From an uncultured candidate division Zixibacteria bacterium (lineage in GTDB: Bacteria; Zixibacteria; MSB-5A5; UBA10806), in the NCBI GenBank assembly GCA_963817915.1, contig CAWFQL010000012.1:384001-448000 (forward strand): a stretch of DNA of 64,000 nt. The letters are read 5' to 3'. Of this stretch, positions 39,001-42,000 are shown in pieces. How positions within the stretch are numbered: the stretch's first letter is position 1; every line of letters begins with the position of its first letter. Made by a program: the position numbers.

Positions 39001-42000
39001 CAAACCGCTCAATGGGAATGACTATCCGATAGAATAAGAGACAAACATAGGTTCTGCTTTATATTAACGAGAATAAAGATTTAAGCTATTATTTGTCCGA
39101 GTCGAGGCTGTCCGAATTACTTAATTTCATTCCGAAAGCGTTAAAAAGGAATGAATAAATATCGGTTTGTTCTTCGACAGTTTTCGATAATGGTTTTCCA
39201 GTGCCATGACCGGCTTCTGTCTCGACCCTTAGCAGTTTGGGTCTTTGGCCATCATCGATTGCTTGTAAGGCCGCAATGAATTTATAAGAGTGAAGAGGGG
39301 GGACGCGGTCATCGTTCTCTCCGGTCGTAACCAAAATGGGTGGGTACTTTTTCCATTTTTTTACATTGTGGATGGGTGAATAAGAATACAAATATTTAAA
39401 ACAGGAAAAGCCTTCATCAACACTTCCATATTCGCTTGTCCATTTACTTCCGACCGTAAATTTTTGATAACGAAGCATATCCGTAACCGGTACCTGGCAG
39501 ATTACAGCTCCGAAAAGGTCTGGGTGCTGTTCCATTGTAGCCGCAACTAATAAACCCCCATTACTGCCACCTTTTATCGCCAATTTCGATGGCGAAGTAA
39601 TTTTGCCTTTGATCAGCCATTTGGCTGCTTCCGTAAAATCGTCAAAGCAGTTCTGTTTGAATCTTCTCTTGCCGCCTTGATGCCAATTCGGTCCGAATTC
39701 ACCGCCGCCCCTTATATTTGCTACCGCGTATACGCCCCCACTCTGAAGCCACATTAAATTGGCTGCGGAAAATGAGGGCTCCATATTAACACCGAAGCCT
39801 CCGTAACCATAAAGCAAAGTGGGGTTATTTCCGTCGCATAGCAGGTCCCTATTGTAAGTAATAAACATGGGTACCGTTACGTGATCAGATTCATAGTAAA
39901 CCTGGCGAGTGACAAACTTTGAAAAATCAATATCATACTGAGGTCTATAAAATTGCTCAAATTTATCACTTTTGAAATCATAGCGGTATACTGTGGGGGG
40001 CACCACGAACGACTGGAATGTAAGAAACATCTCCGAATCTTCTTTCGCCCCCGAGAGAGCAGAAAAAGTGCCAATTGTCGGCAATTTTAATTCCCTGACA
40101 AATTTGCCGTCAATATCGAAAATCTTAATTATATTCTGAACGCTATATAGATATATCGCCACAAACTGATTATTGACCATGATGGCATATTCCAGGATAT
40201 CGTCACTTGGGGGAATGATTTCGCGCCATTCTTTCTTGGAAGGCTTATCCAAATCGATAGCCACGACTTTACCCGTGAGACTCTTGAGTCCCGTTTTGAA
40301 AAAGAACGTCTTTCCTTGATTGCCTATATAGTAATAGTTTACGTTTTCCTTTTTCATTAGCTGAACGAAATTGCCGCCTGATTCAAGGTCGCGATAAAAA
40401 ATATCTAGTTTACTGTCAGAGCCGCGATAAACATATATGAAGAAATATTTGCCATCATCGGAGATGAAAGGAACCGGAACTGATTCCTTATCTTTTGGTG
40501 TCTCAAAAATCAATGAATCCTGCGATTGAGGCGTGCCCAATTTATGCCAATAAATTCGGCTATAATTGTATTGATCGTTTTCCGCTACTGTTTCAGGATC
40601 AGGCCAACGATTGTAGAAAAAACCGCCGTCCGCCGGATCCCAGGCGATATCAACGAATTTGCACCATTTCAATATTTCGTCATAATTCTTGCCGGAATCA
40701 ATATCCCTGATATGAACTTCCTGCCTATCGCTGCCGCCATACGAGAGCGCGTAAGCGAGATATCTGCCATCGAGGCTAAATGCTGTATTGGTAATAGCAA
40801 CTGTTCCATCGGAGCTAAGTTGATTTGGGTCCAGGATAATAATTTGCTCGCTGTCGAGGGATTTTCGCATTCTCAGGATAGGTTGATTTTGAATGCCATC
40901 TCTGCCGAAGTAAAAATAGCGATCGCCATGTTTTAAAGGCATGGAATTATCTCTGAGGCTGCTATTATTGGTCAGAAAATTTCTGATATGCTCCCTTTGC
41001 GAAATTGTATCAAGATACGCATGTGTAAGGCTGTCCTGGGCATTGGCCCATGCTTTTGTTTCCGGGGATTCCGTTTCTTCCAGCCAACGATATGGATCCC
41101 TGACCTTCTCACCATTAAAATAATCGACAGCGTTCTCGGTTCTGGTTTTCGGATAGATGATATTTTGGGCAAAAATAATTGATGAACTCGCCAAGATTAT
41201 AAAGATGATTCCGAGGTTATTATTTTTGATTTTCATCAAGGTTATTTCGTTTCCTTAATTGTTGTCAAATTATAACAGCGTAATACTATGAATTATTATT
41301 AGAATCCGCCTCCATAGTCAAGCGTGAATTTGAAGGTTTTCTATTGGGGCTGAATAGCATCAAACGCCCTCAGCTTTAATTTCGTCAAACAAAAAAGGGC
41401 CGGCACTTATGCCAGCCCTTAGCTTATCGGTCATCCGCCCTAGGGCGGAAGCATTCGATATTGCAGGTCGAAACCTTCACGGTTTCAACTTAGCCCTTAG
41501 TAGCGGGAACGTCCGCCGCCGCCGCCTCTACCGCCGCGATCGCCGCCGCCGCCTTCAGTGCGGGGCTTTGCGACGTTGACTGTCAATGCACGACCGTCGA
41601 GCTCTTTGCCATTAAGATTGGCAATAGCCGCTTCGGCCTCTGACTGATTGGGCATCTCGATGAATCCGAATCCCTTGGATTCTCCACTCATCTTGTCCTT
41701 AATGATGTTTGCTGACGAAACCTGTCCGTGGGCTTCAAATGCCGCACGAAGATCGTCTACTGCTGTCTGTCTTGAAAGATTTCCGACGAATAAATTCATC
41801 GTTTTCTCCTTTTTTCGTTCAACTTGCCGCTCACTTCGTTAGGAGCGATTTTTCCGGCAAAATTAAACACATTGGTGCGCGTCATTGCGCTTTGTGTCTC
41901 CCGATTAATTTCGTCCAAGGATTGAGTGTTAGGCAAGGCTTGAGAAAACTAATAACGGGGATCGTTACCGCAATAAGGATAGCGGCTCCATTTTCTAATG

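Follow-up and report, generated by a model that had tools for sequence, protein, structure and literature searches.

The question raised by this locus is what kind of sequence separates a promoter from the start codon of a small RNA-binding protein gene, how far it reaches, and what it might do for the gene behind it. In the preliminary description of the window (the whole 64,000-nt stretch, from the genome of an uncultured Zixibacteria bacterium, that was analyzed), a structured RNA of 130 nt, at 41840..41968, was placed between promoter and start codon of an RRM gene. A structured RNA is indeed found there, as judged from covariation in the family and from the positions of promoter and open reading frame. 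It is the extent that has to be redrawn. The element is on the minus strand, the supposed 3′ limit at 41840 falls inside the third hairpin (41869-41817), and only the first 129 nt had been marked; since the promoter ends at 41976 and the RRM reading frame begins at 41799, the element is the entire leader, about 170 nt up to the start codon, of a single-RRM (Rbp-type) gene. In order of transcription, the features are:

41976..42004, minus strand: sigma70-type promoter, TTGACA-17-TATCCT, 10 of 12 consensus positions
~41968, minus strand: inferred transcription start, predicted from the promoter position
41897..41961, minus strand: domain I, a long interrupted rod (predicted fold, swap tests, pair counts)
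41877..41890, minus strand: P4, near-invariant GCGC-AAUNRU-GCGC hairpin, candidate protein-binding site (conservation)
41817..41869, minus strand: P5, long hairpin of variable sequence and length (predicted fold, covariation)
41805..41809, minus strand: Shine-Dalgarno (SD) word GGAGA (sequence)
41784..41801, minus strand: P6, start-codon hairpin (predicted fold)
41497..41799, minus strand: single-RRM protein, Rbp type, 100 aa, with a glycine/arginine-rich tail (PF00076, E 2e-21)
41395..41420, minus strand: intrinsic terminator closing the one-gene transcript (11 pairs, U tail)

The rod starts about 7 nt downstream of the inferred transcription start, has a U-rich 5′ arm, and consists of an outer helix (P1), a weak AU-rich middle (P2), a CAAG/CUUG helix (P3), and an apical UUG/CAA. 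The conserved core of the element had been taken to be UUUCUCAAG/CUUG, but the middle letters of that word are only 46-68% conserved, as against 98-100% for the stem of P4, the GCGC hairpin, which does follow the rod as claimed; in the P4 loop the A is kept in 99% and the U in 100% of 94 aligned copies, a set partly selected on this motif. Few unpaired bases are conserved beyond P4. P1 and P5 conserve pairing and not sequence, and in P1 the 5′ strand keeps pyrimidines and the 3′ strand an SD-like word; in about a quarter of members, opening of P1 could close the SD. P5 ends 6-7 nt upstream of the SD word, 87-93% of 157 leaders have GGAG at positions -10 to -7, and a -35-like word stands at a like distance in 100 of 164. 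The U run before the SD that a terminator-based attenuator would need was found in only 5 of 164 leaders. A leader peptide at the transcription start was considered and rejected: 72 of 164 leaders have an ATG within their first 16 nt, spread over 14 positions and opening frames of 1-41 codons, and an AUG within the P4 loop requires a G that is found in 33 of 119. With no terminator and no conserved upstream reading frame, any control should therefore act on translation or on mRNA decay.

Folding of the window copy by itself is uninformative. The marked interval gave z = -1.40, with 18 of 200 shuffles folding as well, and on both strands single-sequence folding of this interval was not beyond chance; the case for the structure thus rests on relatives. 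RRM genes were gathered by protein similarity alone and the DNA upstream of them then inspected. Of the first 30 loci, the lead gene had the GCGC hairpin at 28, a variant stem at 1 (L029, also matched by our model), and neither at 1 (L015). Among 64 further RRM genes picked by protein, 52 had the leader, 1 was borderline, and 11 were without, so that not every RRM gene carries it. RNAalifold, run on three plain alignments (A2, A3, and A4), returned the GCGC hairpin only, the other helices being missed because their register varies, and an alignment-free test was therefore used, in which the arms of one leader are paired against the arms of another. In this swapped-arm test on 62 leaders the z values were -8.3 for the rod, -8.0 for its outer helix, and -11.6 for P5, compared with +0.2 for a mismatched control and -2.6 for promoter DNA. 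A map of 66 segment pairs over 127 leaders yielded just three signals, namely P1 (-9.0), P5 (-17.1), and one between the SD region and the early coding sequence (-5.6); the inner rod segments were not significant in it, and it contained no pseudoknot or other long-range covariation. Pair counts are in keeping with this. When 40 sequences are aligned plainly with MAFFT, both partners vary in 17 of 26 pairs and 81% of cells are paired, for a structure that was chosen on that same alignment; for P5, a plain MAFFT alignment of 30 shows changes on both sides in 6 of 8 pairs; and a model-fitted alignment of 94, biased by the fit, shows them in 23 of 26. The middle helix of the rod is weak, being paired in 67% (alignment of 40) or 48% (alignment of 94). 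The family structure is thus supported by covariation, also without any alignment, for the outer rod helix and the third hairpin.

The third signal of the map leads to the start codon. The spacer of 91 of 157 leaders contains GUAGA, whose pairing with codons 3-4 places the AUG in a loop. The Ile-Tyr codons are ATC TAC in 84 of 85 genes that have the GUAGA spacer, versus 26 of 48 that lack it and 0 of 24 Ile-Tyr genes of other phyla, and they are ATC TAC in all 107 metagenome matches (6 of 116 rows, mis-parsed, were left out, and the set overlaps the genomes). Codons 3-4 are the two most fixed of 49 codon sites, at 0.98 and 0.97, with the next at 0.90 and other Ile codons at 0.64; early codons are in general more conserved than later ones. 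In the four GUAGA genes that have Ile-Phe, the partner word is found upstream of the SD instead. A tree test of spacer against codons gave 2 supported pairs, too few at the resolution of the tree. The spacer and codon counts point to selection on codons 3-4 for RNA structure at the start codon, which we count in favor of the reading preferred below; the outcome of the tree test and the general conservation of early codons weigh on the other side. The window gene itself is without the GUAGA spacer, and its P6, a predicted 7-bp stem holding the AUG (z -2.5; 4 of 200 shuffles fold as well), has a form partly forced by the protein sequence. A strongly locked start region was rejected, since in this respect the leaders do not differ from 250 control genes (6.7 vs 6.2 kcal/mol, p 0.09).

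Within the window genome there are three RRM genes, of which two have the leader and the third (C9:340470) does not. The second copy, at C12:468726-468853, had already been reported in front of an RRM gene, and this is correct: it is 86% identical to the window copy over 129 nt, and the RRM gene behind it is 94% identical to the window gene. The solved structures nearest to the window protein are eukaryotic and plastid RRMs. Contigs from RNA libraries (4 studies) span leader and reading frame and leave the flanks almost bare, which fits one transcript, although such contigs reveal neither its start nor its level; in two studies they end at 41949, 19 nt short of the inferred start, an end that cannot define the start. 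Four other P4-like words occur in the genome, all inside reading frames, and hence no wider regulon is seen; the genome's 3 cold-shock genes are without the leader.

How far the leader extends beyond this genome was determined by a search with a 95-position model. It matched 243 places in 100 of 150 Zixibacteria genomes, with up to 7 copies per genome, figures of the same size as those first reported from a separate model. The family has 164 nonredundant members. The claim that the leader is always 5′ of RRM genes is upheld almost without exception. Seventy-six of 79 checked matches lead into an RRM gene 48-92 nt downstream, while of the other 3 one meets the end of its contig, one precedes an RRM-like remnant with a frameshift, and one (E 0.29) lies inside a coding region; of 120 metagenome pattern matches, 116 are followed by an RRM gene, three more by what begins like one, and one by something unrelated. 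Matches to a short pattern lacked an RRM gene in 87 of 120 cases and were taken as chance. All RRM paralogues share the leader, and the genes that go without it in tandem arrays are downstream RRM genes that have no promoter of their own. “Across Zixibacteria,” in contrast, overstates the distribution. Families f3 (50 of 54 genomes), f4, f5, f8, f11, and f14 are filled with matches, while eight of 19 families (f6, f7, f9, f10, f12, f13, f15, and f16) have none, and the window's own order is patchy, with a match in 1 of 6 relatives in its own family, f1, and in 0 of 5 f2 genomes in the 150-genome search; a separate search found clear matches in 3 of 5 chosen f2 genomes. The RRM genes inspected in leaderless families have other upstream sequence. 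One f15 gene (L189) resembles, by eye, a distant version of the leader.

Restriction to Zixibacteria, also claimed, holds among what was searched, where the leader is confined to part of this one phylum. The model found it before 0 of 79 RRM genes from other phyla, phage contigs gave no match, and the lone match in 50 genomes of other phyla (E 0.027) is spurious, with neither GCGC hairpin nor RRM gene. A scan of all genomes gave at least 118 loci, and among the matches listed 62 are labeled Zixibacteria and 56 otherwise. Records labeled Ignavibacteria, Deferrimicrobium, or Calditrichota (or unclassified) looked like exceptions, but 28 of the 56 listed loci are letter-identical to loci in genomes of the same class, and the RecA of 5 more nests among Zixibacteria (85-88% identity with f3 or among themselves, as against 69-75% with two outgroups); the label check placed these 28 + 5 of the 56, with a RecA tree that contains no true Calditrichota.

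Is this, then, a known leader under another name? Rfam 15 has no match in the window, as first reported, and when 20 + 20 loci were compared with it, allowing E up to 1-2, no family fell on a leader. No description of such a motif was found in the literature covered, which included the main texts of two screening papers and stopped short of the supplements of PMC11109978 and PMC5737381, which may bear on novelty; one supplement file of PMC8632094 gave no matches. The general kind is familiar. In the part of PMC11109978 that we draw on, such elements are commonly found, with 107 protein-binding candidates in 50 genomes, and these “protein-binding candidate” motifs likewise are structured RNAs directly before a nucleic-acid-binding protein gene and presumed autoregulatory; the main text mentions neither RRM nor Zixibacteria. 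The present leader has the marks of an autoregulatory one, occurring only in cis before the genes of one RNA-binding protein and having a structure conserved by covariation, if weakly so in the middle helix. We conclude that the RNA family is real and apparently undescribed, that it resembles in kind the leader of a small RNA chaperone, and that its function has to be inferred.

The closest comparison is with the cyanobacterial rbp genes, whose 5′ untranslated regions have cold-response boxes (Maruyama et al. 1999, as cited in PMC9333190). Both are conserved leaders before single-RRM, glycine-tailed Rbp genes, and both have a UCUCC/GGAGA helix. However, the GGAGA strand in cyanobacteria is the SD itself (at -11/-12 in 80 of 120), whereas in the present family it precedes the start by about 90 nt; in cyanobacteria the SD is paired with the upstream box in 77 of 78, and no such covariation or excess complementarity exists in the Zixibacteria leader. 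Moreover, the GCGC hairpin is found in 1 of 120 cyanobacterial leaders and ATC TAC in 5 of 120, and our model scores only 12-17 bits there with most pairs broken. The Zixibacteria leader is therefore not a member of the cyanobacterial cold-box leaders. For Bacteroides, the account in PMC13370968 gives the paralogous RRM-1 genes rbpA/B/C leaders of 122-155 nt, few canonical cold-shock proteins beside them, and negative auto- and cross-regulation that acts partly through the untranslated region. The sections consulted give no structure for these leaders, and our model has no match at RRM loci of Bacteroidota-labeled genomes (a set without B. thetaiotaomicron). In Staphylococcus aureus, as far as the portions of PMC5815144 (cspA) and PMC8034633 (cspB/cspC) used here go, the leader of a small RNA chaperone forms a long U-rich hairpin and the chaperone feeds back on it. 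The layout is similar here, with a long hairpin, an apical U-rich motif, and a leader within the range of 110-170 nt. There, however, the protein has a cold-shock domain and not an RRM, no likeness in sequence has been shown, and the open/locked anti-SD switch is unsupported in the Zixibacteria leader.

That switch is one alternative to protein feedback, and temperature had been invoked in the preliminary description, where the leader was put down as likely autoregulatory or cold-responsive. A cold-on thermoswitch of the cspA or S. aureus cspB-cspC type would have the rod hide an anti-SD strand in the cold and free it when warm. The layout with its apical UUUG-U motif would fit, as given for cspB/C in the part of PMC8034633 at hand, and UUUGU is at the rod apex in 66 of 157 leaders. 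The rod is also the least heat-stable part (on average 17.9, 15.0, and 9.2 pairs at 10, 37, and 55°C), P1 keeps the strand composition described above, and blocking its 3′ strand closes the SD by >0.2 in 41 of 157 leaders and opens it in 1. For the window copy, the centroid coincides with the conserved fold at 10°C but no longer does so at 25 or 37°C, and 8 bases at 41949-41942 are complementary to the SD region. Several results argue against the switch: arm and SD do not covary (z +1.3; +1.7), pairing of the native arm with the SD is no stronger than that of shuffled arms (-8.7 vs -8.8 kcal/mol), and P1 contains CUCC in only 25 of 119; a family-wide anti-SD switch was rejected on these grounds. 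Folding predicts no temperature-driven refolding either: openness of the SD is flat (0.37, 0.39, and 0.40 at 10, 37, and 55°C), in none of 157 leaders does going from 10 to 37°C make the start region harder to open, and two exclusive folds, with the SD locked warm and open cold, were not obtained at 10-55°C. We regard the thermoswitch as unlikely. A role in mRNA stability or processing, with the 5′ hairpins shielding the transcript or the rod serving as RNase III substrate and with no protein feedback, strikes us as about equally improbable. A rod so close to the transcription start, P1 and P5 that conserve pairing rather than sequence, the absence of any predicted effect on SD access, and the presence of RNase III in 5 of 5 genomes checked would all suit it; what it leaves unexplained are the invariant P4, the fixed codons 3-4, and the placement before RRM genes only, and RNase III is present in a leaderless family (G020) as well. 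With the enzyme in the Zixibacteria genomes checked, an RNase III step like that of S. aureus cspA may nonetheless be part of the picture.

A partner other than the RRM protein seems less probable still. CsrA, which would bind GGA words in P1 and at the SD, is found in 150 of 150 genomes, and GGA is in the P1 3′ strand in 68 of 119 leaders; four genes of family f5 have the SD in the loop of a short hairpin, an arrangement that we take to resemble a CsrA site. But the GGA in P1 is paired, and 51 of 119 leaders do without it; no GGA is found in the invariant P4 loop; and CsrA is equally common in leaderless families, so that its presence does not discriminate. As for a cold-shock protein in this role (a small RNA being a further candidate), f5 has the leader and no cold-shock-domain gene was found there. 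We give very little weight to a riboswitch or other ligand sensor. A multi-helix leader with internal loops directly after a promoter does invite the thought, yet the scarcity of conserved unpaired bases outside P4 argues against it, as do the lack of long-range covariation, of a terminator, of an attached metabolic gene, and of an Rfam match. The least probable of all is that a transcription factor uses the GCGC palindrome as its DNA operator, the rest being incidental. The P4 stem is almost invariant and palindromic, with 3 of 5 pairs that never vary in the MAFFT alignment of 40. Where it changes, however, the outcome is a G-U wobble of the transcribed strand or a compensatory swap, and the four stem pairs show no mismatch among the 94 of the model-fitted alignment; two members (L029 and L195) have the stem wholly replaced with pairing kept; and P4 lies about 80 nt into the transcript, among covarying helices.

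We are left with feedback by the RRM protein, to which we would give a probability of about one in two: the element would be the 5′ leader of the mRNA for a small RRM RNA chaperone that plays the cold-shock protein role for this clade and controls its own leader. It is a conserved multi-hairpin RNA that acts in cis on RRM genes only and whose structure reaches over the start codon, and feedback is favored because genomes with the leader have few cold-shock genes and because Bacteroides provides precedents. The invariant stem and loop sequence of P4 suggests a binding partner, and a leader common to all paralogues is what cross-regulation would lead one to expect. On the model we infer, the RRM protein, whichever paralogue, would bind the leader, with the invariant AAU loop of P4 and the rod's U-rich arm as the likeliest sites; when abundant it would presumably lower its own synthesis, by stabilizing or covering the start-codon hairpin or by altering the processing of the rod by nucleases, and the RRM genes would be induced by cold or stress. 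Blocking P4 in folding, however, leaves SD openness unchanged (0.39 to 0.40); with the apical UUUG blocked, the start region becomes costlier to open by >1 kcal/mol in only 23 of 102, and, as noted, this region is no more locked than that of control genes, which also speaks against the model. As to precedent, the parts of PMC13370968 used here treat the Bacteroides Rbps as noncanonical cold-shock proteins that repress rbp expression, and pose thermosensor versus feedback as an open question for bacterial RRM leaders; RbpB crosslinks to its own mRNA, by the section consulted of PMC11697453; and in S. aureus, according to the relevant part of PMC5815144, CspA melts a U-rich hairpin in its own 5′ untranslated region and blocks RNase III. 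RbpB of B. thetaiotaomicron prefers single-stranded RNA and is a global binder, and a specific site for the RRM protein is therefore not assured.

The relation to cold-shock-domain genes is an inverse one. Genomes with the leader have a mean of 1.08 such genes (n = 100), against 4.48 in those without it (n = 50), and none was found in 13 of 13 f5 genomes. Across 19 families the rank correlation is -0.81, a value overstated by kinship, the relation resting on few independent lineages. A tentative extension, to which we attach perhaps half the weight of the feedback reading itself, is that a branch of the Zixibacteria largely gave up cold-shock proteins, that RRM proteins replaced them, and that these came with a dedicated RNA homeostat, in which the GCGC-AAU hairpin would be a sequence-specific single-RRM site and the weak rod and start-codon hairpin would keep all paralogues informed, at the same time, of the cell's RNA-melting capacity; separate leaders for the same purpose seem to have evolved in Verrucomicrobia, in cyanobacteria, and in a second RRM subfamily of Zixibacteria. 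If so, two unrelated chaperone families have been swapped within one phylum, at a time when bacterial RRM proteins are emerging as alternative cold-shock proteins. For work on such proteins the leader family offers a phylogenetically supported structure, a short hairpin of invariant sequence that is a candidate RRM ligand, and compensatory mutations that are already defined. The window genome itself has both systems, with 3 cold-shock genes and 2 leaders.

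The ~170-nt structured leader of the Zixibacteria single-RRM genes is deployed in two ways where these genes stand in tandem. Arrays of two to three RRM genes carry it on the first gene only at six loci (L008, L019, L020, L021, L026 and L027), while in other arrays (L024, L159, L366 and L375) promoter and leader are repeated ahead of every RRM gene. At one further locus, L379 (G013:C1:459207-459302), an intact leader is followed by a frameshifted RRM-like remnant. Across 150 Zixibacteria genomes, the number of cold-shock-domain genes ranges from 0 to 12 and trends opposite to both RRM gene number and leader presence; none was found in any of the 13 genomes of family f5.

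Several Zixibacteria RRM genes are without this leader, yet have promoters 150-190 nt upstream (C9:340470 in the window's own genome, and L166, L174, L201, L204 and L206), and two of them, L201 and L204, have another conserved leader in common. In the window's own order, a second RRM subfamily is preceded by a different long conserved leader (L401-L404 and L406-L410, from families f1 and f2), for which Rfam gave no match in the four tested.

Leaders before RRM genes are also found in other phyla. In genomes labelled mostly as Verrucomicrobiota, RRM genes have a strongly conserved leader of their own in common, unrelated to that of Zixibacteria, and in cyanobacterial rbp leaders having both the upstream UCUCC box and the GGAGA (SD), a hairpin sequestering the SD is present in 77 of 78.

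~130 nt upstream of the RRM gene: Verrucomicrobiota-type leader (L217, L222, L225, L231, L236, L239, L244, L248, L249, L251, L276, L279, L282)
Upstream of the start codon, 47 to 11 nt away: cyanobacterial rbp SD hairpin (loci L538-L657)

Neither type matched Rfam (eight loci tested for the former, eight leaders for the latter), and the Verrucomicrobiota-type leader is a candidate new RNA motif. Lineage-specific conserved sequence also lies upstream of RRM genes in Fibrobacteria-labelled (L223, L228, L230) and mostly Bacteroidia-labelled (L286, L288, L290) records; a partial cobalamin riboswitch (L227:1023-1240) is located 3′ of an RRM gene. As for the labels of leader-bearing records, among the matches listed many labelled Ignavibacteria, and the single Deferrimicrobium- and Calditrichota-labelled ones, appear to be Zixibacteria.

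Two ORFs in the window have dockerin-like ends:

42158-42475, minus strand: ORF with dockerin-like end
43617-44285, minus strand: ORF with dockerin-like end

The former looks like a fused fragment, joining the start of the neighbouring hydrolase to a dockerin repeat. Finally, the recA match is split in two pieces in two genomes, the window's own (G000:C3:27998-28787) and G126 (G126:C2:14350-15137), and this is a frameshift or an assembly error.
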